64,000 nt of DNA from Candidatus Poseidonia alphae. Lineage in GTDB: Archaea > Thermoplasmatota > Poseidoniia > Poseidoniales > Poseidoniaceae. The stretch lies in assembly GCA_002505405.1 (NCBI GenBank), contig DAVD01000012.1:39809-103808 (forward strand), read 5' to 3'. A model generated the notes under the pieces. It was given only the letters and a program-made list of their open reading frames with translations. It did not search any database and was not told the origin of the DNA. The position numbers and the translations under genes are program-made. Positions within the stretch are counted from its first letter, which is position 1, and each line of letters begins with the position of its first letter. This document shows positions 13,139 to 29,191 of the stretch, piece after piece.

Positions 13139-13828
13139 GTGATGAATGTTCTTTTCGTCATGGACACCTTCAAAGACAGGGTTCCTCCAACCTCCATCAT
13201 GGACCAAAGGAAAGCGACCGATGTCTTTCATGAGTGGGCTGAAAAAGGCAAGGACATCGGCATGGAAAAAGGCCATGCTGCAAGCGTAGATGTCATGCTA
13301 AATCTTCTTCTTGACAACGTATCAATGCCGTTTTCTGCCGTCGATATTGGTTGTGGAAATGGATGGGTCGTTCGACAACTTTCCAGTCATGAACACTGTA
13401 CCAACGCGTCAGGAGTTGACGGAGCCGTAGCTATGATTGAAAAAGCGAATGGAATCGACCCTAATGGAAGTTATCATCACGGCCAACTTCCTGATTGGAA
13501 ACCCGAGCAACCCGTCGACCTGGTCCACAGCATGGAATGTTTGTACTACCTGCATGACCCGTTGAACTTTCTTCAAATCATACATGATGACTGGATGAGG
13601 GCAGAAGGCAAACTTGTGATTGGGATGGACCATTACGAGGAAAACCCGGCCAGTCATGATTGGCCCAAGTCCCTCAACGTGCACATGACAACCCTCTCGA
13701 TCCAGGCATGGTTGCAAGGAATGAGAGACGCAGGATTTGAGAACGTAAGTGCGATTCAAACCGGAGCGAAGGAAGACTGGGCGGGAACGCTTGTACTGTC
13801 CGGGACTAAGCCTCAGCGTCCTCAATGA
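13139..13828 (+). CDS. Class I SAM-dependent methyltransferase
   Basis: Motif I VDIGCGNGWVV. Confidence 0.55.
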   Translation: MMNVLFVMDTFKDRVPPTSIMDQRKATDVFHEWAEKGKDIGMEKGHAASVDVMLNLLLDNVSMPFSAVDIGCGNGWVVRQLSSHEHCTNASGVDGAVAMIEKANGIDPNGSYHHGQLPDWKPEQPVDLVHSMECLYYLHDPLNFLQIIHDDWMRAEGKLVIGMDHYEENPASHDWPKSLNVHMTTLSIQAWLQGMRDAGFENVSAIQTGAKEDWAGTLVLSGTKPQRPQ

Positions 13829-16800
13829 AGCCGAGCACTTCGCCCTTTGGACCGCAGCGTCGAACATCGCCTTTGTAGTACGGGCAGCCTGCGCAAACGG
13901 TGGAATCTGAATCCAAACGCTCGGGTTCATCACTGCCGTTCGTGAGGTGCATCATGGTGCGCCAGTGGAGATGTTGGTCAAGGTCAGCCTTTGCAAACAC
14001 AAACTCTTCTTCAGTCATTTGTACAATACGTCCGTTTGCACCCAACAGCAGTGATGGCGGAAGTATGCGTCGGCGCTCTTCCTTTGGCTTAAGCTGTTCA
14101 ATCGCTTCAAGAGCGACGGAGTAAAGTGTCAATTGAAGGCGATGTTCGTGGAGAATCTCGGCTTCTGCTTCGGATTGCGGGAACGGGTTCGTGGTTTCAG
14201 GACCGACCGCTTGTAAAACATGGCCTTTCTCTGCAAGAGTTGGGTTAAACGGAGCCATGCATCCTTTGGTTTTCAGGTCAACCACTTGGAGGCATCCTCG
14301 GCCGCCTTCATCAACAAGCGCCAACACCAAGTCAGCACGTCCGTTGAAATCCATATCGACTTGTTCAATGGTTGCTTGCTCAACGGGGCCCTTAGGTGAA
14401 AACCGACTCCGTTTGAACGAATCGACTGAAATCGGATACGAATGGATGAACGGGAGTTCGGTTCGAACCGCTTCAACCCTGAATCCGTGGAGGGATTCTC
14501 CTGCTACCCACTGTCCAAGAAGGCCAGCATCAATGAGCGAACTCAAATGGAGCATGCGTTCCCTCCATTGATATTCTGTACTGTCCTTCCGTTGAGTTTC
14601 ACCGTATCCGAATTCGGCCATGACCCTTCCAACTGTAATTTCAGAGGCAAGCGCCCCTTCGCTGGCATGATGCCAGTCTTGGGGTAACTTCGGAGTACTG
14701 CTCGAGAATTGAAGGGGGTTACGGAGTCCAATCTCTACAATTCGGTGCATCATCAATCCAAATTCAGTCGGCAGAGGCCATCGCTTCTTCTTGGGTTTTG
14801 TGAGCCCCTTTGGAATTGTAAACGGTTCGGATGCCCATCCTTTCATGTGCTCCAACCAATACCTTCGGGGACAAGCGTCTGTAGCATCCAAGTGGTGGGC
14901 TGCGCCTTTGAGCGTCTCTCGCAAAGGTTGGAGCACGACCTCGTTCTTGTCGGCAACCAACGTTGTTGCATCAAGGTGCTCATCGAGCATTCGGAGACGT
15001 TGTTGAGGGGATGGCGGTGTCGGTTGATGAAAGCAATCGGGATGGTGATAGAGCCGGATTCCTGAAACGCCCTCTTCACCCAGAGGATTGTTTTCCAAAA
15101 GGATGGCTGGGTTGAGGGAGACGGGTGCTTTGGAAGAGGTGTATGGAGGGAGTGAATGGGCTCCTGCATCCCCTGGCAAGAGCCACGGGCTGTCTTCATC
15201 ACCAGCACACCAAGACGCACGTCGTAATCCTTCCACCCACATCCGCCCCATGGTCCTCGGGTCGGGTTTTACAGTGAGGGAGAGTTCTCCGGATTCGGTA
15301 TTGAAGGTCGAGGTATCGGTAGGCCTACCGGTGACGATGAGGCGGTCCTTTACACGGGTGAGGGCAACGTAGAATTTTCTTCGCAGTTCCGCCTTGTCCT
15401 GGGCGGTGTTCATTTGACTTGCAAATGCCCAGAGGCCGTCTACAGGGCGAGCGTGAGCATGCCAGGGTTGAATCCTTCCAGCGACAACTTGTGGCGTAAC
15501 CAATACATTGTCTTTTACCGAGGTCGTAACGTCGGCCATACCCGCTGTAAAGATGCCTGAAACAGCCACAACTGGGGCTTGAAGTCCCTTTGCACCGTGA
15601 ATCGTCATGATTTGTACGGCGGCTTTCGTAGGCTTACTGATGGCTTGCGGACCCCTCTTTTCAAGTCCAATCAATTCGTTTAAGCGCCGGTAAATTGCCG
15701 TAACTGAATGGCCTGTTTCATTTCCGATGCTATGAATCATGCCAAGCCATGCCTCTGCATGTTGACGCTGGGAGTCTTCACTGTACGCAACGAGAAGGTC
15801 GGAATGATCGAGCACCGCATCCAACACGTCATAGATAGCCCCCAAAGATGCGAGGTGATGAAGGTGGTTGAGTAAGGCCTCTATCGCATCGTTCGGTGCA
15901 TGTTCAAGAAGAGCATCCCATGCTGTACGCTCTTCAGCGAGACGATAAAAAGCGGCATGAACTTGAGATTCACTCATTCCAACAACAGCGGAGCGGGCCA
16001 ACTCAATGCCCGCTTTCCGAGAATGGGGATGCGCCACAAGTTCCAACACCGCCATCAAGGGCTGAACAACCGGTTGCATAAGCAACAATCCTTGCCGGTC
16101 GGCCATGACGGGAATCCCTCGCGCCCGCAAGCGTTCAAGCAGGTCCGGCAGGTGCCTCCGTGAATTGATCAAAATCATGACGTCCTCCGGGCGGACTTCG
16201 GGTCCGGTCTCTGCGATCTCTTTCCAATCCGCTTCAGATGAATTCCATACGCGGGAACCCTCTCCATTCAGCAACGAATGGAGGCGGGTTGCAAGCAATT
16301 CATGTTCAAGTTGGACATTGGAGGCGTTTGGGTTCTCAAAGGTGTTGAGTGGAATATCAAGGTCATACGAAGCATGTTGAAGCGCTCCTTGTATGGGGAG
16401 AAGCCACTCCAATACCCCTGGCTCTTCACTCGCTCTTGCAGGATGCAAACGCTGGGCTTCAGCATGCCAGTCGCCAGGTAATGCATGATGACGAGGAGAA
16501 AATACTTCGTCGAAGATGTCATTCATCGATTCCATCAAACTTGGCCGAGTACGATGGTTTGAGGTCAAATCAATGTGCCCTTCCTGTCTCCGCTCAAGCC
16601 GCTCACCCGTGATGGTTGAGGTGGTCTGTCCATCCTCCCATGCATAGGGGACGTAGCTGTGTGGGGCTGAACCTTCCGCATCATGTTCATTGGTGTACGA
16701 GCCTGTTTCCCCTCCGGCCCCAATTGGTCGCGGGTCCCTTCCTTCTCCGTTTTTGCGCAGATGGTTGAGGCTGGTTTCATCGGCTTCAATTCTGTTGCAA

Positions 16801-18746
16801 TCACGCACGGCAGCAACCGCTCGTCGCATGACTGATACCTCTGCTTGTCTGAAGCGATAGATGCTTTGTTTCATGTCACCAACGATGCAAACCGTTGGGT
16901 CCCAATATCCTCTGGGCCTTGGTGGGTCGTCACCATAACGCGCTCTCCGACCCCACAACCGTGCAAGCAATCGGTAGTGTGATGGATTTGTGTCCTGATA
17001 TTCGTCGATGATGAAGGCTCGGAACTGACGTCGCAATTCCCCTAATACCGCAAATCTCCGGTGAAGGTCGTCTTGGAGATCCGGTTGGTCGTTGAGCAGT
17101 GTTAACGCCCGGGAGACGTGTTCATCGCTCCATGGATTGTCGCCTAACCCGTCCAACGCGTCAATCACTTCTGGAGGGTAGCGGTGACGGCAGACATCCG
17201 GACATCGGGCAAGAAGAAGGTCGGCTGCAAAGCGTTGAATGTCATCGAAATCATGCATGCCTTCGAGCGATTTGCGGCGAGCAAGAATTTGATGGCATCC
17301 TCGATGAACCGTGATGAGGTCGCTGAGAATTTCCATTTGTAAATCAGCAGAGACATAGGTCCCTCCTTCAACCGGCGTCGGCCCAATGGAGGGGGGGAGC
17401 GGGACAAGCCGGAGGGGGGAGTCAAGAGGCATTCCATCATAACCGTCCCCGGGGTTGAGTAAGAAAGCGGATTCAGCCAAGAGGCGAATCAAGATGCCCA
17501 GCGGTGAGTGAAGTTCGTTTTTCAGTTCGTCTTGCAAGGCCACGCTTGCGGAAAACAACGCGTCCTTATCGGTCCCTTTCATTCCTTTTACCTTCCCTTT
17601 CGCCAGCAATCCACCATGCCATTTATCCGTTGAGGGGAGATTGTTGCGGGGGAAAAACGTGCATGGGTTTTTGTTGAGTCCTGAAGAACCCGCCATGCCG
17701 ATCATGGCTTTCCACATCCAGACCAATTGGTCCGCAGGCCGGTCGGGAAGCGGGGCACTAACCAAACGGGCAAGATGGTTGAAGCGGGTGAGGACGGTGT
17801 CGTGCTCTTCTTCAATGGGTTCAGCGCATTGTTCTGTATAAGGCAAGAACAGACTGACCCAATTGTGCAAAAGTGGTGCGAAATGATTGATGAAGCCAGG
17901 AAGTTCGGCAGCAATGGGTTGTGCGACCATGTCCAGAAGAAGCGAGACCGGAGCAGGTCCTCGGCCGCTCCATGAGATGCCCAAATCTTGAGCCCGCTGA
18001 ATCATCGAACGGTGAGATTGCTCTACGAAAAGAGATGTGTTGAGAAGTCCATTGAGGACCACTTCCGCAGGCTCTTGCCCTCCCAATCGCGTGACCAGCC
18101 GGTTGCGAGATTGAATGAATTCATGTTGGTGATTGAGCACACCGGCATCCGAGGCATCGTCTGTCGTGCGTATTCGCCAGACAGCATGCATTGTATCGCG
18201 AAGCATGAGCGGTGCTCGTTCTTCGGGAACTTGGTCGCTTGCTGAGTAAAGGGTGACGGTGTCGATGTACGGTCGCACCAACCGGTTGAGGAAGGCGTCA
18301 ATGGTTGAAATTGGAGCCTCATCGAGGCTTGACAAGAGCATTTCAACATCTGCGTCATCTCGGAGTCTCGGGTCAAATATTCCTTCGATATCTTCTTCCT
18401 TAGGAGGTTGAGCACGGCTTTGAGCAAGACGATGGCGTATTCGAGCCTTGAGTTCAGCCGCAGCTTTTCTGGTAAAGGTGATGGCGACGACTTCGGACGG
18501 CAAGAGGCCGTTCCAATCCTCAACCTCTGTGCGTTCCCTCTTCGGAGCGCGTAAGGAGCCGTGCCCGGAAAGTGGGACTCGTGGACCCGGAGGAGTCAGG
18601 TGAGTTGCCCGTTGATCGTGAGCCAACAAATGTTGAACGTAGCGCTCAGCCATGACGGTTGTTTTACCCGTACCCGCTCCTGCGTCTAGGGCAATGTGTT
18701 TGTCCAAATCAAGACCAAGTCGCTGGCTGTTGTTGAAGTCAACCAT
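13806..18746 (-). CDS. AddA-like helicase–nuclease: complete UvrD/PcrA-type SF1 helicase fused to C-terminal RecB-family PD-(D/E)xK nuclease with Cys cluster
   Basis: Helicase motifs in order: I ALDAGAGTGKT, Ia AITFTRKAA, TIDAFL, II IIDEYQDT, III VCIVGDMKQSIYRFRQA, IV LTSNHRTRP, V IMTIHGAKGLQAPVV, VI FYVALTRVKDRL. C-terminal nuclease has GRADLVLALVD (motif II) and VVDLKTKG (motif III), with Cys at GC..., CAGC and ...RRC. Start placed at ATG 18746, which overlaps the upstream stop. Confidence 0.7.
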   Translation of the reverse strand: MVDFNNSQRLGLDLDKHIALDAGAGTGKTTVMAERYVQHLLAHDQRATHLTPPGPRVPLSGHGSLRAPKRERTEVEDWNGLLPSEVVAITFTRKAAAELKARIRHRLAQSRAQPPKEEDIEGIFDPRLRDDADVEMLLSSLDEAPISTIDAFLNRLVRPYIDTVTLYSASDQVPEERAPLMLRDTMHAVWRIRTTDDASDAGVLNHQHEFIQSRNRLVTRLGGQEPAEVVLNGLLNTSLFVEQSHRSMIQRAQDLGISWSGRGPAPVSLLLDMVAQPIAAELPGFINHFAPLLHNWVSLFLPYTEQCAEPIEEEHDTVLTRFNHLARLVSAPLPDRPADQLVWMWKAMIGMAGSSGLNKNPCTFFPRNNLPSTDKWHGGLLAKGKVKGMKGTDKDALFSASVALQDELKNELHSPLGILIRLLAESAFLLNPGDGYDGMPLDSPLRLVPLPPSIGPTPVEGGTYVSADLQMEILSDLITVHRGCHQILARRKSLEGMHDFDDIQRFAADLLLARCPDVCRHRYPPEVIDALDGLGDNPWSDEHVSRALTLLNDQPDLQDDLHRRFAVLGELRRQFRAFIIDEYQDTNPSHYRLLARLWGRRARYGDDPPRPRGYWDPTVCIVGDMKQSIYRFRQAEVSVMRRAVAAVRDCNRIEADETSLNHLRKNGEGRDPRPIGAGGETGSYTNEHDAEGSAPHSYVPYAWEDGQTTSTITGERLERRQEGHIDLTSNHRTRPSLMESMNDIFDEVFSPRHHALPGDWHAEAQRLHPARASEEPGVLEWLLPIQGALQHASYDLDIPLNTFENPNASNVQLEHELLATRLHSLLNGEGSRVWNSSEADWKEIAETGPEVRPEDVMILINSRRHLPDLLERLRARGIPVMADRQGLLLMQPVVQPLMAVLELVAHPHSRKAGIELARSAVVGMSESQVHAAFYRLAEERTAWDALLEHAPNDAIEALLNHLHHLASLGAIYDVLDAVLDHSDLLVAYSEDSQRQHAEAWLGMIHSIGNETGHSVTAIYRRLNELIGLEKRGPQAISKPTKAAVQIMTIHGAKGLQAPVVAVSGIFTAGMADVTTSVKDNVLVTPQVVAGRIQPWHAHARPVDGLWAFASQMNTAQDKAELRRKFYVALTRVKDRLIVTGRPTDTSTFNTESGELSLTVKPDPRTMGRMWVEGLRRASWCAGDEDSPWLLPGDAGAHSLPPYTSSKAPVSLNPAILLENNPLGEEGVSGIRLYHHPDCFHQPTPPSPQQRLRMLDEHLDATTLVADKNEVVLQPLRETLKGAAHHLDATDACPRRYWLEHMKGWASEPFTIPKGLTKPKKKRWPLPTEFGLMMHRIVEIGLRNPLQFSSSTPKLPQDWHHASEGALASEITVGRVMAEFGYGETQRKDSTEYQWRERMLHLSSLIDAGLLGQWVAGESLHGFRVEAVRTELPFIHSYPISVDSFKRSRFSPKGPVEQATIEQVDMDFNGRADLVLALVDEGGRGCLQVVDLKTKGCMAPFNPTLAEKGHVLQAVGPETTNPFPQSEAEAEILHEHRLQLTLYSVALEAIEQLKPKEERRRILPPSLLLGANGRIVQMTEEEFVFAKADLDQHLHWRTMMHLTNGSDEPERLDSDSTVCAGCPYYKGDVRRCGPKGEVLGFIEDAEA

Positions 18747-21700
18747 TAGAATGACCCCCCTGTAAACGACGAGACCGAACACGATTGGCGGAGGACACAG
18801 TAGTTGCAATGTGTGCCCGGCGTTGGATTAACCTGTCCGTCATGAGCCGCCTGCACAGCGCGTTGGGCTGCCTTTAATCGCTCATACATCCATGTCCTGA
18901 ACGGAGAACGGTGGATGCCTTCCCCGTTCAAAGGAAGGAAGTGAAGGGGCAAATGCCCGGTTGCTTGTCCCAAGTGCAATTCCTCTTTCACCGAATCAAT
19001 GTCGGTATCCAATTCAACATAATGAGCAGTGAACTCCCCTATTTCTGTTGCGCCGACACCGATGACGCGGTCACCTGGGTGGGCGACCTCCCAAGCCCTA
19101 GCATACAATGCAAGTTGCAATTCTTCAAACAAGCAGCGAAGATGGCGCAAGCCACGTTGTTTGACCTGTGGGCCGCGAACGGTCTTCAAATCACGAACGA
19201 TGACCAGCCGCCGAGCAGCGTAAGGCGTTCCATCAAGAGGCATTGGAGTTGTCTTCTCACTTGATTCGTCCAATATACCAAGTGCAGTCAATGCCTCACG
19301 TTGCCCTTTATTCAACACCACCACGTCGACGCGATCGGCATAGCCAAACATTTCGAATGACGCTGCAGCCTCGTGTTCGTCGGTTGTATCCAAGGCGATG
19401 CTTGTCCCCTCGGACAAGGTCTTCCATTCACAGGCAATCGGGGCTGAATGTTCTAGCGTCAAATCCGATTGATACATTCTGAAAAGTCTGCCTCCGGGAG
19501 AAATCGGCGTTCCTGTCTCCTGGTAATCGTTCCATTCTGCTGGTGTGGCGTCGATGAGGTCGCGGGTTCGGTGGACAGAAACTGCATTGTATCTGCCCAT
19601 CCATTGTGCATGTTCGTTCAAGTGTTCAAGGATAACGTTCCAACCTGCCCCTACATCTCCCATTGGCCCAAGGTGGAGGGGTTCAATCCGTCCAAGGTCT
19701 GAGCCGCTCACATTGACGCCGTGCCCAGAAAGGAGGGCTCCTTCAACCTCGTGAGCGAGAATTCCGCGAATCCTCAGGTCAACATCCTCAGAGACGCCTT
19801 CATCTTCGCTCTTAGCGTTCAGAAACTGATTCATCCATGCGCTTCGCGGACAATGAAGCCATTTTTCCAGTCGGCTTGGCGACCAAACCTTTCGAACCAG
19901 CGAAGCATCAATTTTGCCGAAGCGGTGGTTGAGTGAAAGCCCTGTTGGCGCGTAGGCGGGAAGAGGACGAGGGTCAACACTTAGCGAGACAACCTTCTCT
20001 TCCTTATGACCGAGATGAGGCCACTGTGCTGCGCTAACTCCGGGGGCTTTGACTGAAGCGTGCTCTGGGCGCAACCTCACTGCATCAATTCCAAGGAGGT
20101 GGGTGCGGTGGCTCCAAGAGAGCGACGACCCCTCGGTGAGCCCTCTCAACGAGGGTTGTCTCTGCTTACGATCACTCTGAATCACGCCCTCAAAGGAATG
20201 AGTCAGTGTTGGGCGATGGTTGAGTTGTTCGCGGGGTTGGATGGACTCTTTGAGGTCCATACCCAACTGCTGGCGAGCATCCCTTGGAAGGTGCCCGTGA
20301 CGAATCAATCGCTTTGTTCCTGCTTCTTCTGCTGTCCAAGAGGAGACGGGCGTCAACCAACTTCCCTGTCCGAGTTCTCGCGAAACCCACTCCCAATGGC
20401 GTAAGCCCGATGTTCCTTGGTAAGTGTCAGGTGGCAAGAATTCGGGAGCTGGTCGCATAGCATCCCACTCCCCTGAACGTCGCACGTCCGACAACCATTC
20501 GGCGTAAGGAGCGCTTGGGCCGCCCCCATCTTCAGGGCTTGAATCAAACATGACAATACGAGGGGCTGCATTGAGGAGATGCCGAAGGTGGTGACGTCCT
20601 TGCCGAATCAGCAAGTCCGTTTGGAACATTCCAAGTTCAAGTTGGGCTTTGGCATCCAACCAAGGTACAACGGATGTTTTCATGGGCCAGGCGTCAACAT
20701 CAAGGCCTGCAAAGATGATCAAATCAGCTTCGAGCCCCAATGCCTCTTTTGGCGTAAGTACCTCGATGTCTGCTGTTTTCATCTTGGTTTGAGACAGTGT
20801 GGTGACCTGCCCTACATACGTGAGGAGGTCAATAAAGTCCATTCCATCAAAGGTGATGCTTTGTACTCTGACCATTGAAGATTGAATCTTTTGAATGGAT
20901 TCTAAGATAGCGTGGAAGGTACCTAGGCTGCGATTGTAGGGGGATTGCCGGTGTTCTAAGGCCTCAAAATCCAACCATTTGACGAACTGTGTCATCCATG
21001 CGGGCCCATTTTTTGGTGCTGGCGGGAGGGGGAGGAACTCACCGGTGCTGCACCCCTCTACATCGTACCGTAACATGTGCACGTCTTCTCCCATGAGCAA
21101 CGGCTTCCACGCATGAAGCATGCATGAAAGCCACCATTGGGTTTCCTCAAGGTCTTGCCTTCGTTGCTCTGGATTGCGTTCTGTAGCTGATGGTTTGGCT
21201 CGTGAAAGAGCGCCTACCCATCTTGAAATCGCACCTGGCCCACCGAGGACATGAAATTGTTGGGCAATACTTTGGAGTGCTTCTTGGTGAGGCCGAGGTC
21301 GCCATTCTTCCTGCGTTGGATGAACGAGTTCGGGGAACATATCTTCCTTGAGAGGAAGAGACGTTGAGTCCATAACGGAGTGAAGAGCGTTCATCCCCCA
21401 CGCACTCATACCTTGAGACAAGCGGGATGCTTGTAGGAGAGCGTGGAACAGCGGTTGGTCTTCCAACAACTCAGTGTTCGAATTCCATTGAATGCCAAGT
21501 GAGCCGAGTGACTGCGTCCAAAGGTGCTGTCGGTCTCGGACAGAGCCGTCAATGACCAGTATTCGTCCTTGAGAAGAACTACGGAAGTGCTTGATCAGTT
21601 CAATTGTAGAATTGAGAATATGGTCGCGTTCGTCGACCGTTACTCTGGTAAATTGGGTGTTTTTAGAACGACCAACATTGGACCTCCAGGAAGGGTGCGC

Positions 21701-22477
21701 CTCACTCCATACTTCGTGGGGCGGGACCCATGATGGGAGCGTTTCCTGTGTGCATGGATACTCGTCGACGAGAAATGCTCCATGGAATCCCAGGCGGAAC
21801 GAACCAGGGTTGAGCAACTGATGAATGGGGGTGAAGCGTGAAAGAGAACACAGAATTGCCCGTTCTATTTCTGTAAAGTCTGGAGCGTGGTCAAGGATAA
21901 GAATGCCTTCAATATGGGAAAAATGAAACGGGGCTGACTTAGCTGAATTGAGCGCGCTAAGGACGTGTTTTGGAAGTAAAACGGGGAGCGTTCCCCCGCG
22001 CTCCTTTTCAAAGGCAAGCAGGATGTTTTCATAGGTCTCAAGACCTGGGTTATTCTCCCAATTGAACGGGTCGAGAAGGGGACTCAAATGCGCATGAAGA
22101 CGTTCCAATCGTTGTGTTTTCTTCATGCCCCAAGATCCGTGTTCACCGCTATGAAGGAGGGGGAATTTGTAATTCTCACCTGCATCCATGCACTTGCTGT
22201 GAATGCCCATGAAAGAGGATGCTTCGTCGTCAAGAAGGACCGGAAGCCGGAAATCTACGTGCAGCAAGCGAAGAAGTTGATTCATCGTGACGTGTTCTTG
22301 AGGTTGTGCAGCGACGCCCCGTTCGCCAAGTGCATTGAGGGTGGACTTACGGTGTTGCTCTGTTGGATGTACGACCATAATATTGGATTCCGTCGATGCC
22401 GAAAGTCCATCAATCAGCCAATCGGGCAAACCTTGACCAGGGGGGGTGTACTCCGATGTGATGGTATAATCTTCCAC
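18746..22477 (-). CDS. AddB-like subunit: degenerate helicase-like region plus C-terminal RecB-family nuclease with CxxCx5C Fe–S motif
   Basis: No intact Walker A. C-terminal GYADRVDVVVLNK (nuclease motif II), LVIVRDLKTVRG (motif III) and terminal CNYCVLRQSC (Cx2Cx5C, as in AddB/Cas4). The stop TAA overlaps the ATG of the downstream helicase gene (TAATG). Confidence 0.55.
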   Translation of the reverse strand: MEDYTITSEYTPPGQGLPDWLIDGLSASTESNIMVVHPTEQHRKSTLNALGERGVAAQPQEHVTMNQLLRLLHVDFRLPVLLDDEASSFMGIHSKCMDAGENYKFPLLHSGEHGSWGMKKTQRLERLHAHLSPLLDPFNWENNPGLETYENILLAFEKERGGTLPVLLPKHVLSALNSAKSAPFHFSHIEGILILDHAPDFTEIERAILCSLSRFTPIHQLLNPGSFRLGFHGAFLVDEYPCTQETLPSWVPPHEVWSEAHPSWRSNVGRSKNTQFTRVTVDERDHILNSTIELIKHFRSSSQGRILVIDGSVRDRQHLWTQSLGSLGIQWNSNTELLEDQPLFHALLQASRLSQGMSAWGMNALHSVMDSTSLPLKEDMFPELVHPTQEEWRPRPHQEALQSIAQQFHVLGGPGAISRWVGALSRAKPSATERNPEQRRQDLEETQWWLSCMLHAWKPLLMGEDVHMLRYDVEGCSTGEFLPLPPAPKNGPAWMTQFVKWLDFEALEHRQSPYNRSLGTFHAILESIQKIQSSMVRVQSITFDGMDFIDLLTYVGQVTTLSQTKMKTADIEVLTPKEALGLEADLIIFAGLDVDAWPMKTSVVPWLDAKAQLELGMFQTDLLIRQGRHHLRHLLNAAPRIVMFDSSPEDGGGPSAPYAEWLSDVRRSGEWDAMRPAPEFLPPDTYQGTSGLRHWEWVSRELGQGSWLTPVSSWTAEEAGTKRLIRHGHLPRDARQQLGMDLKESIQPREQLNHRPTLTHSFEGVIQSDRKQRQPSLRGLTEGSSLSWSHRTHLLGIDAVRLRPEHASVKAPGVSAAQWPHLGHKEEKVVSLSVDPRPLPAYAPTGLSLNHRFGKIDASLVRKVWSPSRLEKWLHCPRSAWMNQFLNAKSEDEGVSEDVDLRIRGILAHEVEGALLSGHGVNVSGSDLGRIEPLHLGPMGDVGAGWNVILEHLNEHAQWMGRYNAVSVHRTRDLIDATPAEWNDYQETGTPISPGGRLFRMYQSDLTLEHSAPIACEWKTLSEGTSIALDTTDEHEAAASFEMFGYADRVDVVVLNKGQREALTALGILDESSEKTTPMPLDGTPYAARRLVIVRDLKTVRGPQVKQRGLRHLRCLFEELQLALYARAWEVAHPGDRVIGVGATEIGEFTAHYVELDTDIDSVKEELHLGQATGHLPLHFLPLNGEGIHRSPFRTWMYERLKAAQRAVQAAHDGQVNPTPGTHCNYCVLRQSCSVSSFTGGSF

Positions 22478-22816: not shown

Positions 22817-23968
22817 ATGAGCGATAATATGGAATGTGAAGACTGCTGTGGAATGAATTTTACGATTGACCAAGCTCGAGCAGAGCGTGTTTGCGATGGT
22901 TGTGGCCTGGTTGACCCACACTACACCACCGATGCTGATACCAACAGTTCAATTGGGCTGGGTGACACACGACAAACTGAATCCTTGGATGTCTTCGCGA
23001 ACAATCCAAACGCAGCACAAGGTGGCCGGATGAATCCTTTTGGAGATCGCACCGATTACTCAGGGAGCCGTCTTTCTCCGTCTCAACGTCGTAGATTTAT
23101 TCGTTTGAGCCGTGCTGACCGCTCGAGTCAGCGTGAAAAGGACCCTATGTGCCGCGAGGTGAAGCTGACTCTGTGTCGCATGTTCGGCGACAGTGTTGCT
23201 CGCGCCACCACTCATTTGGCCGATGCCGCATGCCGAAAATTGTCTCCTGAACAAGAAGCTGTTCGAAAGACCCTTACCTCTGGGGAGCGTGCCGCTTTGA
23301 GCTGCCCTAAGACCTCCATCACACGAAAGGAAGTGGGAATTCGTGGTGAAAGCCACCAAGACAACCTCCAAATCATAGCACTGGCCATCGCTGTGCTCTC
23401 CCACGAGTGGCTCAATACCCCTGCTTTCAACCATCAAATTGTCATGGCCGAATATGGTATTTCCGAGTCTCAATTCAAAAACGCAAAGTCCACCATAAGC
23501 AAATCCTACAAAGCACGATGTCGCAGAGGATGGGCTGCCATACCCCGTGTAATGGCTCGAGGGGCTCTTCGTGCTGACCAACTTGACATCGTCGCAGAGA
23601 ACCTTGACCGCGCCCTCTCCCAGCGGCTTGCGCCAAGTGAACTTGAGGTCGTGGCTGAGCTGTTCTGGAACACCATGACCGACTTGAACGAGCCTACTGC
23701 TGAAGGCCCGCTGGCCAATGTAGCCATGGGTTATGTGGCCGGGTGTGCCATGTACGCAGCGCTTGACCTCGTCGGTTTGAGTCATGGAAACTTGGGCCGA
23801 GTAGCTGAGGCTGTAGAACTCTCCCCCGCCGGCTTGACCAACCGCCTCAAGAGCATCCAGGCTGAAGTGAATGCTGGACAGCTGCCTGAAGCACGTCGCA
23901 TGTTTGTTCTCGATGAAGTTGATGGCGACTCTGGGCCATCCGGTGCAGAAGAACGCGCAGAAGAATGA
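22817..23968 (+). CDS. Divergent TFB-like transcription factor (TFIIB-type Zn ribbon plus degenerate cyclin-like repeats)
   Basis: N-terminal CEDCCG...CDGCG Zn ribbon. The later segments THLADAACRKL and VAMGYVAGCAMYAAL resemble cyclin-repeat AAALYxACR helices. The C-terminal LTNRLKSIQAEV resembles TFB's TIRNRYKEL. The linker is much longer than in canonical TFB. Confidence 0.5.
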   Translation: MSDNMECEDCCGMNFTIDQARAERVCDGCGLVDPHYTTDADTNSSIGLGDTRQTESLDVFANNPNAAQGGRMNPFGDRTDYSGSRLSPSQRRRFIRLSRADRSSQREKDPMCREVKLTLCRMFGDSVARATTHLADAACRKLSPEQEAVRKTLTSGERAALSCPKTSITRKEVGIRGESHQDNLQIIALAIAVLSHEWLNTPAFNHQIVMAEYGISESQFKNAKSTISKSYKARCRRGWAAIPRVMARGALRADQLDIVAENLDRALSQRLAPSELEVVAELFWNTMTDLNEPTAEGPLANVAMGYVAGCAMYAALDLVGLSHGNLGRVAEAVELSPAGLTNRLKSIQAEVNAGQLPEARRMFVLDEVDGDSGPSGAEERAEE

Positions 23969-24014: not shown

Positions 24015-24932
24015 ATGCGCCCCGCTCTCACCGTGTTTGCCTCGTTGATGTTTTTCGCATTGTTCGCCCCTGTTGCACCAGCACTACCTGCTGAATCTCT
24101 CGACAAGGGAATGATGTTTGGCGGCCAATGGTCTGATGTGAACAACACCACGACGGATCTCTCAAATCTTACCGACCTGCCTGCTGTCGTCGAAGTTTAT
24201 ACAGCCACCTGGTGTGAAAACTGCGTTGACGTTGAGCACGCATTGGACGAAGTCCAGGAAGCTGGTTTGTTGGAACAGTACCACATTCATCGAGCAATCG
24301 GAGAAACTCAGGACCCGTTTGGAAGTGAAGCCATAGATGCTCGTTGGAATTCTAAATACGGCCAAAACGCCCCTCCTGCCGTGGTATTCAACGGTTCCAT
24401 GAAGAAATTAGGCAGTGTTGCCGATGAGGCAACGTTGGTTGATGAATTCACTGGTTTAGCAAACACTGACTTAGCATTGGGTGCTGGTTCAACAAGTTTT
24501 GGTTGGACTCCTACCACCGACAGTTCTGGAACGGTCACTTGGAACCTCGACATCGATGCTGATCATCTTGAAAATTCAACGCTCAATGTTACGGCTTGGA
24601 TCGTAGAAGCAGGTGCAGAGTTTGAAGAAGGTTCTAACGGACTGGGAACCTATCCCCACATCGTGCTTGACATCGTCTCCTTAGGAAATGAACTCCAGGG
24701 AAGCGTTGCAATACAGATTCCGGAAGCAAACGACGGTGATGACCTCCAAGTCCACCTCATCTACGAAATCATACCCTTGGTTGAAGAGCCAACGGATGAT
24801 GTGAAAGTTGAAGACTCGGACGATTCGGAATCCGTACCGTTTCTAACCGGATTGACCACAGTCACTGTCCTCTTGGGAGCCGCTTGGGCACACGGCGGCA
24901 ACGTTAACCAAAAAGGTCGCCAAGACCAGTGA
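24015..24932 (+). CDS. Secreted thioredoxin-fold protein with C-terminal membrane anchor
   Basis: Signal peptide MRPALTVFASLMFFALFAPVAPA, CxxC motif TWCENC and a C-terminal hydrophobic LTTVTVLLGAAWA. Confidence 0.45.
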   Translation: MRPALTVFASLMFFALFAPVAPALPAESLDKGMMFGGQWSDVNNTTTDLSNLTDLPAVVEVYTATWCENCVDVEHALDEVQEAGLLEQYHIHRAIGETQDPFGSEAIDARWNSKYGQNAPPAVVFNGSMKKLGSVADEATLVDEFTGLANTDLALGAGSTSFGWTPTTDSSGTVTWNLDIDADHLENSTLNVTAWIVEAGAEFEEGSNGLGTYPHIVLDIVSLGNELQGSVAIQIPEANDGDDLQVHLIYEIIPLVEEPTDDVKVEDSDDSESVPFLTGLTTVTVLLGAAWAHGGNVNQKGRQDQ

Positions 24933-27273
24933 GTTCAGTGAATTCTTTTTGTTTTCGGGGCTCATCGGTCAAGTCTTCATGCAACTGCCAGGGATAACGC
25001 TCAACCGTATCAGGGGCACGCTCCACATTGGCATAATTCCACCATCGAGGAGGGGCTCCCCGGACGCCTTGTCGGCGTTGACTTTCTCCAAGGAGGTCAG
25101 TAAGACGGAGGCGAGCATTCGGGCGTGGATGATCCCGACGAATGTAGTGAGTATGGTTTGGCCCCTCGAGATCTTTGACATAGCCAAGAATTGATGCAAT
25201 TTGTCGCACGAAACGGCGCTCTACCGTATTGCGCAGTGTCACCTTAAGGTCCACGTTTCCGAATTCAAGAGCAGCACCGTATTTGGCAGGGATTAGGAAA
25301 TCTGAGCCCAGAGGTTGAGATGTCAAAACGCTCCAAATTCGGGAATATACTTCACACCAACGCCGTTCACCGTCGCGTATATCTCCAATCTGGTGGACAT
25401 CGTCTCTTCTCCTCGGCATAACCGCATGACGCCGATGATGAATCTGTCTTCGGAAGTCACCGTATCTGAAGGCTCGCTCTTCTGCGGATGAGCGATGTAC
25501 CGCATGAGCTCGGTAAGGTTTGACGCCTCCTGCCCATCGCTGAATCACGTTATGAATTGGAAACGTTCCGGACTCCTCAAAATGTTCTTGGAAAATCTCG
25601 TTCCATTCGGTGTTCCGGCGTTCACTGATTCGTTCACCGTGACGGAATTGACGTTGCAGAAGGCCGCGAAAGCCTCGGTTCCCTCGCTCCGGTTCAGGCT
25701 CATAACGGCCTCGAAGCTCGTACCATGGATCAGCGACATAATTGTGATGGTGGTAGGTCAATTCTTTGAGGGCCTCTTGGTCAAGAACAGCAATCCATTC
25801 CCTTGGAACTGGCCGTAGAAAACCAAACGGAGGACGGTTGCGTATCAAATCATTCAAGCTGTCAATGTTGAGGGTTGCAGTGGTATCATTGTACATTGAG
25901 AGCACTACAGAACCCATGGTATCTCCGAGAGGGACCGTGGAATGATAGTGGCCGTTGTGAATGCAAATCGCATCTTTGTGCTCTCGACCAAATCCGCTGA
26001 GGTGGGAGATTAGATACGGCGCGCTGTGTTGCCCCCTTGTCACATTGACCTCGTAGCAATGCCCTAATTTTCCAACCACAAGAACCGTTGCGTTCTTGAC
26101 ATACACTCGGTCGGTAAGCCCGTTGAGGATTCCATGACAAAATTCCAGAGAACGGACCATTTGGTCGGTCGGAGCATCGGTTTTGAGGTAAGCTTGTGAC
26201 CAATTGTGCTGCAAGCCCAGAAGAATCTTTCCTGCATCGGAATTCAACGGCGATAGCGCAAGTGAGACGAGAATCGCCAAGTGTACCGGTTGACGGGGAA
26301 TTTGAACGAGGCGGGTCCGGCCAACTTGACTGCGGACGCGAAGCGAAATGTGCTTTTCTGAAACTCGCAGTGGCCAATCGAGGGTGTTCGCTGGAATTTT
26401 GAACTCTTTCGGGTCCCTCCAGTGCCTCATCCATGGCGTATCATAACAGTCAAACAAACCCCGAGGGTGGTTTGAAAATGCTTTGCGGAGGTCTTGCATG
26501 TTGGTTCGACCTCCGTTTCGGATCAGTTCGGTTCGAACATCGTAAGCCCAGGAGATGAAGCCAGCTTTTCCAGACACTCCTGTTTCTTTGAGCCGGTCAA
26601 TCTTGACCTTGGTGGAAAGCCAAGCAAGCATTGAGGCCATCGGGCGAGAATTAGAATCACCGTTCGCAAAAACATAATTCAATGCACGAATTTCACGATG
26701 GTCCTGATTCCTGTTTGCGGCCGGCGTAGCGCAAGAAAGGCCTACGATGAGTTTCGCGAGATCCCATCCGCTCCGGAGTTTTTTATCGGTCATGATGGGG
26801 AAAAATGAGCGAAGACTGATGACGGATGGAAGTTCTACATCATCCAAATATTGGCGGCCGTCCATGATTCGAAAACACGAGCCATCTTGGAATTCAATTC
26901 CCTGAGCCAACCATCTGATTTGGGAGTTTGACAACACATGACCGTTAACGAGGGCATCTCCCAGTTCTTGAAACTCAGCCTCACTGCAGGGAAGATCGGC
27001 AATTGGTTCCATTGCTTCATGTTCTAATTTAGCCCAATTCGCATGCTCACCATCCCCCAGTGAATGAGCCAGTCGTTTCCAGCGACCTGAGGCGTGAACG
27101 GATGGCCCTCCGAACAACGCAATAGCACGTTCATGATCGGTTGGAGTAAGGGGGACAGACCATCCCTCCCGAGGATTGAAGTCGATCATTGATTGACACC
27201 AATCGCAGACAATTTCCGCCTCGTTTGAGTCCAGATTATACTTGCAGTCAATGTAAGAAGAGTGCGAACTCAT
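24904..27273 (-). CDS. Large Arg/His/Trp-rich protein of unknown function (N-terminal CxxC; no recognisable catalytic motifs)
   Basis: About 790 aa from ATG 27273 (the track's 27315 start is TTG). The composition is basic, unlike neighbouring acidic proteins. N-terminal CDWCQS. No P-loop. It lies 38 nt downstream of the ltaE stop on the same strand. Confidence 0.5.
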   Translation of the reverse strand: MSSHSSYIDCKYNLDSNEAEIVCDWCQSMIDFNPREGWSVPLTPTDHERAIALFGGPSVHASGRWKRLAHSLGDGEHANWAKLEHEAMEPIADLPCSEAEFQELGDALVNGHVLSNSQIRWLAQGIEFQDGSCFRIMDGRQYLDDVELPSVISLRSFFPIMTDKKLRSGWDLAKLIVGLSCATPAANRNQDHREIRALNYVFANGDSNSRPMASMLAWLSTKVKIDRLKETGVSGKAGFISWAYDVRTELIRNGGRTNMQDLRKAFSNHPRGLFDCYDTPWMRHWRDPKEFKIPANTLDWPLRVSEKHISLRVRSQVGRTRLVQIPRQPVHLAILVSLALSPLNSDAGKILLGLQHNWSQAYLKTDAPTDQMVRSLEFCHGILNGLTDRVYVKNATVLVVGKLGHCYEVNVTRGQHSAPYLISHLSGFGREHKDAICIHNGHYHSTVPLGDTMGSVVLSMYNDTTATLNIDSLNDLIRNRPPFGFLRPVPREWIAVLDQEALKELTYHHHNYVADPWYELRGRYEPEPERGNRGFRGLLQRQFRHGERISERRNTEWNEIFQEHFEESGTFPIHNVIQRWAGGVKPYRAHAVHRSSAEERAFRYGDFRRQIHHRRHAVMPRRRDDVHQIGDIRDGERRWCEVYSRIWSVLTSQPLGSDFLIPAKYGAALEFGNVDLKVTLRNTVERRFVRQIASILGYVKDLEGPNHTHYIRRDHPRPNARLRLTDLLGESQRRQGVRGAPPRWWNYANVERAPDTVERYPWQLHEDLTDEPRKQKEFTELTGLGDLFG

Positions 27274-27311
27274 GCCTAAGAAAAATGCCGACCTGTTATG
27301 AAGTCCGCACC

Positions 27312-28355
27312 TCAAAAGATGCGCTTACAAAGATCGATAAAACGCTCAATGTCTTCATCCGTGATGTGCAAATGTACGACAATACGGATGTGCGTTGGAG
27401 ACACATCAAACACATCAACGCCGTTGTTTTGCAGTTCAAGAGCGACCTCATTCGCTGGCCTGAGGCATTGGACATAGACCATGTTGGTTTGTACCGTTTC
27501 CATGTCAACGGAAAAGGAATCCATTGAATCAAGTGCTTGAGCAATGGTTGTTGCACGGTGATGGTCTTCTTCCAGCCGGAGTACGTGATGGTCAAGGGCG
27601 TGCATGCCAGCGGCTGCGAGCATGCCTGCTTGTCGCCAGCCGCCACCAAACAATTTGCGCCATCGATGTGCTCGAGTGATGAAGGCTGTTGTGCCCACCA
27701 AGACCGACCCCACAGGAGCACCGAGGCCTTTGGAAAGACAAATTGATACTGAGTCGTAATGTTTGCACATGGTTGCTACATCAACACCTGTGGCGATTGC
27801 CGCATTGAAAATACGTGCACCATCAATATGGGTTTTACAATCGTTCGCTTTGGCAACTGCAGCGATTTGGTCAAAGATCTCTTGGTCGTAACATGAGCCG
27901 CCACCAAGGTTGGTCGTGTTCTCAATGCAAACCAAACTGCCGTTTGGATAGTGACCGCCGGAACCTTCAGATTTTCGTATAGCCTTCTGAACTTGCTCTG
28001 GAGTCATCAGGCTCTTCTCTCCATCGACCAGGGCAATAGATGCCCCACAAAGTGCTGCATAACCGCCACCTTCATACCGGTAAATGTGTGCGGTTTTATC
28101 GCAAACGATTTCATCGCCTGGGACGGTATGCGTCCTTAGCGCAATTGCGTTTGACATGGTCCCTGATGGAACGAAAAGAGCGGCTTCCTTGTCAAACATC
28201 TTCGCCACCCGATCTTGAAGGGCAATAACCGTTGGGTCGTCACCTAAGACATCGTCACCAACAGGGGCTGCCATCATGGCTTCCCGCATGGCTTGTGTTG
28301 GTTGAGTCACCGTGTCCGAGCGAAAATCGATGCGGTCTGAGGGATACTCGCGCAT
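27312..28355 (-). CDS. ltaE: Low-specificity L-threonine aldolase (PLP-dependent)
   Basis: N-terminal DFRSDTVTQPT and SGTMSNAIAL are typical of the threonine aldolase family. Confidence 0.8.
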   Translation of the reverse strand: MREYPSDRIDFRSDTVTQPTQAMREAMMAAPVGDDVLGDDPTVIALQDRVAKMFDKEAALFVPSGTMSNAIALRTHTVPGDEIVCDKTAHIYRYEGGGYAALCGASIALVDGEKSLMTPEQVQKAIRKSEGSGGHYPNGSLVCIENTTNLGGGSCYDQEIFDQIAAVAKANDCKTHIDGARIFNAAIATGVDVATMCKHYDSVSICLSKGLGAPVGSVLVGTTAFITRAHRWRKLFGGGWRQAGMLAAAGMHALDHHVLRLEEDHHRATTIAQALDSMDSFSVDMETVQTNMVYVQCLRPANEVALELQNNGVDVFDVSPTHIRIVVHLHITDEDIERFIDLCKRIF

Positions 28356-28396: not shown

Positions 28397-28813
28397 TCAC
28401 AAGAGCTTGAGGTGGCCGGTGATTTTGTCGAGGTGTTCTTCATCGTAAGGGCCCAGAGCAAGAACGGTCTGTGAGCCACTGGGAATTTGGGTGTGGCCGG
28501 CGTCCCGCACAATGTGGCCCGGTATCTGTTCCTTATCTGCCGCCCGCATGAGCTCTGTAAAGACGCCTTCATCCTCGGCTTTCAAACAGATTTTCTTTTG
28601 ACCCCCAGACAGCCAAGCTTCCAGGTGATCAGGGTGTGTCGTTCCAGCGCGAAGAAAGGATTCCACCGAAGCATGCCCTACTTGGGCAGCGATTTTCCCT
28701 TTCCCCATTTTCAAGGATTGGTTAACAACACAAACCAATTTCATGTTCCCATGAACGATCTGTCCATTCACCCTTGGAGCAGTCATGCGGTGGATGAACG
28801 AACGAAAGCCCAC
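28397..28813 (-). CDS. pth2: Peptidyl-tRNA hydrolase, archaeal/eukaryal Pth2 type
   Basis: GKGKIAAQVGHASV, KICLKAEDE and VRDAGHTQIPSGSQTVLALGP. Confidence 0.75.
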   Translation of the reverse strand: MGFRSFIHRMTAPRVNGQIVHGNMKLVCVVNQSLKMGKGKIAAQVGHASVESFLRAGTTHPDHLEAWLSGGQKKICLKAEDEGVFTELMRAADKEQIPGHIVRDAGHTQIPSGSQTVLALGPYDEEHLDKITGHLKLL

Positions 28814-28822
28814 ATTCTCACC

Positions 28823-29191
28823 TCAAAGTGTTGACAACTCACCGGTGATCAAGTCCAATGATCTTCGCGGCGCTGGCCCAATTCCAAGGACTGTTACGGT
28901 TCCAGCAGGAACTTCAGTATGCCCTGCATCTTGGACCAAGTAATAGGATAAATTCGCTTGCTGTGCTTCATTCGCTAGGCGATGTAAGGAAGGCAAGTCA
29001 TCAGCAACCAAGCAAATTTTTCGCGCCCCTGCCCTTCGCCAGCGCTCCATGAGGCGGGCATGTTGACGGCGTGCTTGAAAGGCACACTGAACTGCTGCAT
29101 GGGCACATTGAACTGCTGTTTTACCAGCGGAGAGCGAAAGGTCACCCCGAACGATTAACGCCATGGAGGGAGCATCATCCTTCGACGACAT
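28823..29191 (-). CDS. Second Pth2-family paralog (tandem duplicate)
   Basis: AGKTAVQCAHAAV, KICLVADD and VQDAGHTEVPAGTVTVLGIGP share the same motif order as the adjacent Pth2 but are divergent. Confidence 0.65.
   Translation of the reverse strand: MSSKDDAPSMALIVRGDLSLSAGKTAVQCAHAAVQCAFQARRQHARLMERWRRAGARKICLVADDLPSLHRLANEAQQANLSYYLVQDAGHTEVPAGTVTVLGIGPAPRRSLDLITGELSTL

Follow-up and report, generated by a model that had tools for sequence, protein, structure and literature searches.

In prokaryotes, conjugation of ubiquitin-like proteins (Ubl) has been described from operons that bring together genes for a Ubl, an E2 (ubiquitin-conjugating) enzyme, an E1 (ubiquitin-activating) enzyme and a JAB-type peptidase (Iyer, Burroughs and Aravind 2006; PMC1779556). 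The Bil and Bub systems are characterised prokaryotic Ubl-conjugation systems (PMC10557695, PMC11601596), and an E1/E2/RING cascade is known from Caldiarchaeum (PMC5654768). Sampylation in Haloferax employs SAMP, UbaA and HvJAMM1 and includes the sampylation-dependent turnover of TBP2 (PMC4895103, PMC4443979). The gene considered here, called X, is an open reading frame (ORF) on the minus strand of a 64,000-nucleotide stretch of Candidatus Poseidonia alphae (contig DAVD01000012.1, positions 39,809 to 103,808); "the window" denotes that whole stretch. Homologs of the X protein, and of a domain within it that carries an invariant cysteine, are tightly linked in a sister clade to operons encoding a Ubl, an E1 and a JAB-like protein. 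X is tentatively proposed, at somewhat less than even confidence, to be a cytoplasmic multidomain E2-like thiol-carrier protein of a Ubl conjugation system.

24904..27273, minus strand: gene X, 789 aa (ATG at 27271-27273, stop at 24904-24906; from the ORF list, homolog starts and codon usage)

The sister-clade operon resembles the described Ubl-E2-E1-JAB operons in its Ubl requiring a C-terminal trim, its ThiF-type E1 and its putative JAB-type peptidase, and the Cys-domain protein occupies the slot usual for the E2 gene. It differs from them in that the putative E2 is missed by the Prok-E2/UQ_con and PADLOC models, and in the addition of a protein called p79 and a transcription factor B-like (TFB-like) protein. 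The sister operon is archaeal and chromosomal and shows no defence-island evidence, and the locus in the window has no Ubl, E1 or JAB-like gene. With sampylation the operon shares an archaeal Ubl, an E1 and, putatively, a JAMM protein, and TBP2 provides a precedent for a general-transcription-factor paralog as target, to be compared with the TFB-like protein of the operon. In sampylation, however, E2 is not needed, and the SAMP and UbaA genes are not grouped with a Cys-domain or TFB-like gene. No homology of X to sampylation components was found or reported.

A Ubl-E1-JAB-like operon linked to X-family genes

Two Thalassarchaeaceae-type relatives of X with a mutual identity of 44% and differing flanks showed the same arrangement around X, namely a short paralog, X, and then, convergent, the genes for a TFB-like protein, p79, a JAB-like protein, a ThiF/E1 and a small protein whose end is ..VPGLVGG plus one or two residues. 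When JGI metagenomes were scanned with that ThiF/E1 as the query, 80 loci (L074-L153) were recovered, with E1 identities of 42-100%. The order of the operon (Ubl, E1, JAB-like, p79, TFB-like) was conserved. Examples are as follows.

L068:10552-13492: operon with Ubl, E1, JAB-like, p79 and TFB-like genes
L071:11927-14914: operon with the same five genes
L074-L153: further examples from the metagenome scan

The operon was flanked by one or two X-family proteins. An X-family ORF was located no more than 400 nt past the operon end in 33 of the 36 loci that extended at least 500 nt (32 convergent, 1 co-directional). In addition, a stand-alone short Cys-domain protein was encoded on the same strand between Ubl and E1, or just upstream, at 17 of the 24 loci with enough sequence. 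These stand-alone proteins consist of approximately the Cys subdomain only and are homologous to the central domain of X (hhalign 97.9%, E 4e-13; 96.8%, E 3e-10).

The Ubl is 72-85 aa long, is encoded directly upstream of E1, and ends in ..VPGLVGG plus one or two residues in most of 73 homologs; no Pfam model matched it. The E1, of 219 aa or fused to the product of the next gene, was matched by the ThiF Pfam model at 40-53 bits (cutoff 28). The JAB-like protein, which is fused to E1 in some loci, carried H[ST]HPx5SxxD in 65 of 71 homologs, a motif one residue shorter than the canonical HxHx7SxxD. The p79 protein is a helical protein of 79 aa. The TFB-like proteins of the operon and of the window are full-length homologs (hhalign 98.5%, E 2e-15, 295 columns), so that the pair formed by a TFB-like gene and a convergent X recurs in both contexts. 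PADLOC matched no system among the operon proteins beyond the generic E1 domain, and this Ubl-E1-JAB-like-p79-TFB-like operon of Thalassarchaeaceae-type contigs appears to be undescribed.

A tandem short paralog of X, of 507-555 aa, was observed in Thalassarchaeaceae-type contigs (L067:2191-5866; L068:7106-10555; L071:8485-11926). It is acidic and comprises the N-terminal region and the Cys domain; the Cys is kept in both copies. Poseidoniaceae-type loci, the window among them, carry X just once.

The cysteine domain of X and its comparison with E2 enzymes

An AlphaFold2 (AF2) model of full-length X reached a mean predicted local distance difference test (pLDDT) score of 75.6, and a model of residues 296-497, made from a diverse 55-sequence alignment (A2), reached 89.2. 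A further alignment, A1, held 104 invariant positions in 37 sequences. The following parts of the gene were delimited.

27124..27252, minus strand: N-terminal putative Zn-binding knuckle or ribbon, residues ~8-50 (A1 conservation; pLDDT 87-89 over residues 11-30)
26389..27123, minus strand: helical region with small beta-hairpins, residues 51-295 (AF2 secondary structure)
25783..26388, minus strand: central conserved domain, residues 296-497 (three-stranded sheet and two helices, then the Cys subdomain)
25819..26181, minus strand: Cys subdomain with a topology like that of the ubiquitin-conjugating (UBC) fold, residues 365-485 (domain model, A2 alignment, Foldseek, hhalign)
25963..25965, minus strand: codon of the invariant C437, candidate catalytic or thioester Cys (alignment; codon checked)
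25378..25782, minus strand: Arg/His/Trp-rich linker, residues 498-632 (clade-specific insertion; low confidence or a long helix in the model)
24994..25377, minus strand: C-terminal alpha/beta domain, residues 633-760 (A1 conservation; profile block 630-765)

An exhaustive profile search of 1.84 billion representative proteins yielded 141 relatives of X, and profile positions ~370-475, within the Cys subdomain, formed the sole block common to all of them. The subdomain begins with a helix (370-385) and continues with four or five antiparallel strands (390-436), the C437 loop and three helices (449-461, 463-466 and 471-479). C437 belongs to the motif ICIHxG (ICIHNG in the window protein). It follows strand 433-436 directly, precedes helix 449-461 by 12 residues, and is conserved in the stand-alone paralogs too. 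Across the 55 diverse domain sequences only four residues were invariant: G401, C437, D451 (in 'LPxGD') and D463 (in 'xxDD').

When the domain model was compared with the Protein Data Bank (PDB) using Foldseek, the top match was Ube2k (7myh_A; prob 0.90, E 0.05). Chains of E2, ubiquitin E2 variant (UEV) or Atg10 proteins made up the greater part of the best 50 matches, with frataxin-type sandwiches interspersed. A Foldseek comparison on a predicted structure had been suggested in the preliminary description; with the full-length model nothing in the PDB was significant, and the only weak matches to the Cys region were of E2 type. Against BFVD the full model likewise gave nothing significant, the best matches (A0A516M0H5, A0A516MG04 and A0A516LSW3; prob 0.7-0.9) being viral-metagenome proteins without names.

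The order of elements in the Cys domain is like that of the UBC-fold E2, UEV and Atg10 proteins (Ube2k 7myh_A, Rad6, Ubc13/Mms2, UbcH5). As modelled, the two share an N-terminal helix, an antiparallel beta-meander, a Cys loop, and a crossover helix followed by two helices. Both have one conserved Cys between the last strand and the long helix, a place taken in X by the invariant C437, and relatives of X are linked to an E1 and a Ubl ending in GG. The X domain differs from E2 in lacking a His-Pro-Asn (HPN) motif and significant profile similarity, and with TM-scores of 0.2-0.37 it is no more than a candidate member of the fold. It has an extra strand before the Cys, and the distance from the Cys to 'LPxGD/WPxD' is 12 residues as against ~8. 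It also sits, unlike an E2, within a protein of 620-800 aa that has a Zn knuckle and two more conserved modules. A permissive, non-significant hhalign alignment was collinear with E2 and matched C437 to the catalytic Cys, a result that fits the proposal but is not evidence for it.

The E2-like proposal was reached because E2 is the only operon component missing by homology and because the X-family domain is the only unassigned conserved-Cys protein, with E2-like topology and best fold matches. In the proposed scheme, the Ubl would be activated by the ThiF-type E1 and accepted on C437 as a thioester, to be passed on to targets by X, either unaided or jointly with the TFB-like Zn-ribbon protein encoded next to it. 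The large flanking domains of X would be adaptors for substrates or partners, in the manner of an E2/E3 hybrid; the Cys domain would be the Ubl carrier, and X a large, adaptor-bearing version of it. UBE2O and BIRC6 are giant multidomain eukaryotic E2 enzymes or E2/E3 hybrids. X would share with them the concept of a UBC-like domain within a large substrate-selecting protein, by analogy only; there is no sequence or demonstrated structural relationship between them and X. That the Cys domain has the fold and chemistry of an E2 is, on the model, a possibility held at a little under even odds. The function proposed for the sister clade may extend to the window's clade, where X stands next to ltaE (a threonine aldolase-type gene), a thioredoxin-like gene and AddAB-like genes.

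Several points weigh against an E2-like X. The Foldseek TM-scores of 0.2-0.37 came with rmsd values of 6-11 Å, frataxin-type alpha/beta sandwiches scored similarly, and E2 chains are over-represented in the PDB, so that many E2 matches amount to about one weak match. When the X domain was aligned by hhalign to 5-10 canonical E2 sequences, P was 0.07-0.48, which is not significant, and sequence homology of X to E2 was rejected on this result. The Pfam models UQ_con and Prok-E2 did not match X, 10 distant members, 55 domain segments and 9 stand-alone paralogs, and the PADLOC E1-E2 models matched the E1 alone and no X-family protein. The HPN motif is missing from X and from the stand-alone paralogs; what comes closest to it, 17-25 residues ahead of the Cys, is HGAP[YF] in X and [HLY]PF or NPF in the paralogs. 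The JAB assignment comes from the motif alone, with no Pfam or PDB match. The E1-linked X clade scored 45-113 bits against the window-clade profile and is on that account a sister or paralogous clade, and tblastn found Ubl, E1, JAB-like and p79 genes to be absent from the 64-kb window and from 62 loci of its clade. Archaeal SAMP/UbaA systems run without an E2, and Ubl-E1-JAB trios may also be sulfur carriers. Finally, all four invariant residues could have structural roles, the Gly in a turn, the Asp residues as helix caps and the Cys as a buried residue.

The last of these points belongs to a different account of the family, in which X is a lineage-specific structural or regulatory protein and its neighbourhoods reflect slow rearrangement in Poseidoniales. 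The invariants (a Gly, helix-capping Asp residues and a strand Cys flanked by hydrophobics), the lack of any enzyme-family match and a gene order from MCM to AddA that hardly changes in Poseidoniaceae, even where protein identity is ~42%, are in keeping with it. It is nevertheless unlikely: the linkage to Ubl-E1 spans E1 identities of 42-100%, differing flanks and at least three arrangements, among them one with a co-directional X and one in which a stand-alone Cys domain stands between the Ubl and E1 genes, and inertia alone would hardly account for linkage across such varied arrangements.

A Ubl-E1-JAB trio that lacks a canonical E2 is, in the classical case, a sulfur-carrier system (PMC1779556, PMC2948915). 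The Cys domain could accordingly be thiol- or metal-dependent without being an E2, either relaying persulfide or sulfur for a Ubl thiocarboxylate system of ThiS/MoaD type or forming a Cys/Asp/Asp metal site, in cofactor, tRNA-thiolation or small-molecule metabolism; co-transcription with ltaE would fit such a role. In sulfur-carrier systems, extensions after GG that are removed by a JAB enzyme are known. A Cys and two Asp make a plausible metal or active site, frataxin-like folds were among the Foldseek matches, and X lies 38 nt past ltaE in every locus of the window's clade. We regard this role as quite improbable: the conserved operon has no sulfurtransferase, rhodanese, MoaE, ThiG, CysM or other biosynthetic gene, and no thiol-enzyme family was matched in any of four libraries. 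Other enzyme classes (P-loop, PD-(D/E)xK, CX5R phosphatase/rhodanese and papain-like Cys protease) were dropped on motif order and secondary structure, because the Cys is not at a helix N-terminus and has no superfamily-wide Arg/His partner and strands 2-3 have no acidic residues.

The E2-like proposal would, in its widest form, make the X family a new class of E2-like (or E2/E3-hybrid) enzymes without detectable UBC similarity. Its partners would be a GG-ended Ubl, a minimal ThiF E1, a JAB-like peptidase, p79 and a TFB paralog, the whole amounting to a protein-modification system specific to Marine Group II (MGII) archaea. In the window's clade this system would have become connected with an AddAB-type locus for DNA-break processing and with a TFB-like regulator. 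This wider form is doubtful. Should the E2-like proposal hold, a lineage of E2 unrecognisable by sequence would join the prokaryotic ubiquitin-like systems, and in archaea Ubl modification would gain a link with a TFB paralog and perhaps with DNA-break repair. The cognate Ubl and E1 are now identified, and a thioester on C437 or on the stand-alone paralog is directly testable. Should the E2 idea fail, X stays a well-delimited, order-specific family of unassigned fold class. In either case a 'hypothetical protein' has become a defined family with a domain map, four invariant residues, a distribution and two gene contexts.

Distribution of the X family and integrity of the gene

A search of 5.8 billion protein clusters yielded 46 full-length homologs of X, all without annotation, at 40-99% identity. 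When one genome for each GTDB species was scanned with a pattern, 58 loci that carry X were recovered, with full-length homologs at 28-99% identity. These loci belonged to Poseidoniales (MGII, Thermoplasmatota) or to generic archaeal metagenome-assembled genomes (MAGs), with one exception labelled 'Verrucomicrobiales'; the preliminary description had asked for the phylogenetic distribution, and the survey indicates that the X family is specific to Poseidoniales. MGII archaea, which are uncultured, rank with the most abundant archaea of the plankton, and many of their core genes lack annotation. The exception, L049 (NZEQ01000040.1, 'Verrucomicrobiales bacterium'), carries the whole MGII block, DUF6580 through AddB, at identities typical of Poseidoniales and is probably a mis-binned archaeal contig.

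The 141 relatives were of three kinds. Those of 750-850 aa have the full architecture; those of 610-690 aa keep profile blocks 20-190, 276-480 and 630-765 and lack the linker; and those of 365-560 aa, with which one 871-aa protein with two copies is grouped, retain in the main the 370-475 segment. All named members are 'hypothetical protein' entries from Poseidoniaceae, Thalassarchaeaceae or 'Euryarchaeota archaeon' MAGs. When the 5.8-billion-protein database was searched with a profile from the domain alignment, just 6 fragments were found, none of them named.

X had been described as lacking recognisable domains, and this was borne out: no match was found in Pfam, NCBIfam, PADLOC or PHROGs even at E <= 1, nor among PDB sequences by single sequence or by family profile, and Pfam gave no match for 10 distant members and 55 domain segments. 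No library searched gave a confident match to a well-characterised housekeeping family. Similarly, as had been stated, no P-loop or nuclease motif was present among the invariant columns or indicated by Pfam, NCBIfam, PDB or Foldseek. Among the defence and phage families of PADLOC and PHROGs there was no match for X, and the sister-clade proteins matched only the generic E1 domain. A literature search found no paper that describes the X family or links Poseidoniales with AddAB. X had also been called the best candidate in the window for an uncharacterised function; this holds for the part of the window around X.

The N-terminal CxxC noted earlier is present as C23-D-W-C26. At this end C10, C23, C26 and H47 are nearly invariant, and residue 12 is a Tyr in the window protein; two distant members, P0070 and P0175, have a complete CxxC..CxxC. 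No Zn-ribbon Pfam model matched the N-terminus of X. The N-terminal region (profile block 20-190) is the first conserved block shared with distant relatives, and part of residues 51-295 may be winged-helix-like in the model, a hint limited to one weak Foldseek match of the full model to an HSF DNA-binding domain. The C-terminal domain is the third shared block. It has the motifs DIRDGERRWCEV, RRDHPRPNARL and RGAPPRWWNY, of which only the PPWW-type is kept in the distant relatives. The linker, at pLDDT 40-48 over 520-550 and 590-630, is an insertion of Poseidoniaceae type that is missing in the 610-690-aa relatives, including the Thalassarchaeaceae-labelled P0070.

Two unusual members were observed. 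The first, P0170 (L070:2261-4876), is the acidic 871-aa protein, in which each of the two Cys-domain copies is followed by a CxxC..CxxC ribbon. Its 21-kb contig consists of co-oriented small ORFs without Pfam or PHROG matches and may, from this layout, be a virus or mobile element of MGII archaea; PHROGs give no support to a viral origin. The second, P0248 (L066:9001-10296), is a minimal member of 431 aa made up of a Zn ribbon, the helical region and the Cys domain. Its gene has an AIRS-domain gene on one side and Trm1 on the other, with MCM and GatE close by, which is a third type of context.

Gene X is a real gene under selection, conserved over its full length. The mechanical ORF (24904-27315, minus strand) is uninterrupted and amounts to 803 aa when counted from an upstream TTG at 27315; all homologs begin at the position of the Met encoded at 27273. 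The log-likelihood of its synonymous codons is -1.161 per codon, within the range of the 25 other window genes (-1.11 to -1.22), and the five wrong frames of the locus score worse (-1.21 to -1.36). Its GC content is unremarkable and matches that of the window, no frameshift was seen in the gene, and no RNA genes or repeats were found in the region around it. Poor codon fit or a frameshifted structure had been named as grounds for doubting the ORF, and neither was found.

The reading of the ORF as a pseudogene, a wrongly called frame or a recently inserted foreign gene is thus exceedingly improbable, being refuted by conservation across at least 46 clusters and 58 genomes, full length in each case, and by codon usage and GC content that fit the window. 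The TTG at which the ORF opens and a broken copy in a related MAG are the observations that speak in favour of that reading. This copy (L008:6001-8391, CASIBY010000018.1) has 93.7% DNA identity to the window X, as against only 82-88% for its flanking genes, and is interrupted by 18 one- or two-base insertions and no deletions, with 0-2 gaps in the L008 flanks. Mismatches number 31/13/86 by codon position, a bias to the third, and every one of the 18 indels adds bases to the L008 copy and none to the window gene. The broken copy is probably a chimeric or mis-polished assembly rather than a decaying pseudogene; as a sign that X is dispensable it was rejected, the insertions-only pattern and the codon-position bias pointing to an assembly artefact.

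Neighbourhood and composition in the window's clade

Gene X is the last member of a co-directional array (MCM, GatE, PQQ-like, DUF6580, PTH2, PTH2, ltaE, X); the genes on either side of it are shown below.

28397-29191, minus strand: tandem PTH2 paralogs (archaeal peptidyl-tRNA hydrolase), 138 and 122 aa; the pair is kept throughout the clade
27312..28355, minus strand: threonine aldolase-type pyridoxal-phosphate (PLP) enzyme (ltaE, Beta_elim_lyase; Pfam E 3.5e-105)
27274..27311, minus strand: intergenic spacer of 38 nt between ltaE and X
24015..24932, plus strand: thioredoxin-like (Trx-like) exported or membrane-anchored protein (WCENC; weak Thioredoxin/Glutaredoxin matches)
22817..23968, plus strand: TFB-like paralog (TFIIB-type Zn ribbon; Zn_Ribbon_TF E 0.0015)
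18746-22477, minus strand: AddB-like protein, 1243 aa (one of an AddAB-like helicase-nuclease pair)
13806-18809, minus strand: AddA-like protein, 1667 aa (the other of the pair; UvrD-helicase, UvrD_C and PDDEXK_1 matches for the two together)

X had been placed between the AddAB/TFB-like locus and the ltaE-pth2 genes, co-oriented with the aldolase gene and 38 nt from it. The neighbours are as claimed, the gap to the aldolase stop is exactly 38 nt, and at every locus of the window's clade ltaE directly precedes X. The Trx-like gene is convergent with X, and their 3' ends overlap by 29 nt. Its product has an N-terminal signal or anchor and a C-terminal hydrophobic segment, and its start is probably at 24015 (MRPALT...) and not at 23871, judging from homologs that align from residue 49 of the longer ORF. 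No cyclin-repeat Pfam match was found in the TFB-like protein.

The order DUF6580, PTH2, PTH2, ltaE, X, Trx-like, TFB-like, AddB, AddA was found in all 58 loci and in further contigs as far as these reached, the Trx-like and TFB-like genes being on the strand opposite to X. Three more divergent loci (L065, L067 and L069) have other outer flanks, yet keep ltaE, X, Trx-like, (TFB-like), AddB and AddA; one of them has the tandem short paralog ahead of X. The Trx-like gene adjoins X, in either orientation, in every clade locus. Homologs of X thus travel with both the Trx-like and the AddAB-like genes wherever the locus reaches far enough, on which point a check had been recommended. X and the TFB-like protein are the fastest-evolving in the block (~42% and ~44% identity, as compared with ~75% for ltaE).

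The product of X had been described as about 790 aa and rich in Arg, His and Trp, and so it is (R 9.8%, H 4.7%, W 2.7%; second, seventh and seventh, respectively, among 37 window proteins). Both Arg-rich strings quoted in the preliminary description are present, at residues 530 and 608 in the linker. That X is basic stood in part: its isoelectric point (pI) is 8.6 against a window median of 5.3, but it carries a net charge of just +6, and across the family the median pI is 7.4 (range 6.6-8.9). The linker has a net charge of only +3, Asp and Glu being abundant alongside Arg.

The earlier premise of a salt-in halophile failed. The neighbouring proteins have pI values of 4-6 and about 13% Asp+Glu, the distribution is entirely within Poseidoniales, and the closest genome locus, in a Poseidonia sp. 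MAG, has ~90% protein identity to the window. A salt-in halophilic origin was ruled out by this taxonomy and by the only moderately acidic proteome, and the host proteome is, from its composition, the mildly acidic one of a marine planktonic MGII archaeon.

The earlier step from a basic protein to nucleic-acid binding is also weakened. The case for binding through the Arg/His-rich stretch is weak on the sequences compared, because the charge is mild and the linker, clade-specific and of low confidence in the model, is missing from Thalassarchaeaceae orthologs. A broader version of that idea would have X as a non-enzymatic nucleic-acid-binding or scaffolding factor that serves the AddAB-like and/or TFB-like proteins in DNA-break processing or in a damage-response transcription switch. 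Binding would be by way of the Zn knuckle, a possible winged helix and the Arg-rich segments, and the N-terminal Zn-binding motif, the weak HSF winged-helix match and a pI of 8.6 with Arg richness in an acidic proteome are consistent with it, as is the block from ltaE to AddA in all clade loci, L065, L067 and L069 included. That block, however, also takes in an exported Trx-like protein and a PLP aldolase without an obvious DNA role, so that the gene order may be merely inherited. Moreover, no OB, HhH or KH fold and no nuclease or NTPase fold was found among the Foldseek matches of the X models, the sister clade is linked to Ubl-E1 genes and not to AddAB, and the invariant C437, D451 and D463 would be left unexplained; together with the modest charge and the absence of the Arg/His insertion from many orthologs, this makes a scaffolding role an unlikely one.

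The AddA-like and AddB-like proteins are unusually large and occur here in an archaeon, their genes being invariably close to X; across Poseidoniales the AddB-like protein is conserved at ~50% identity and the AddA-like protein at ~67% where reached.

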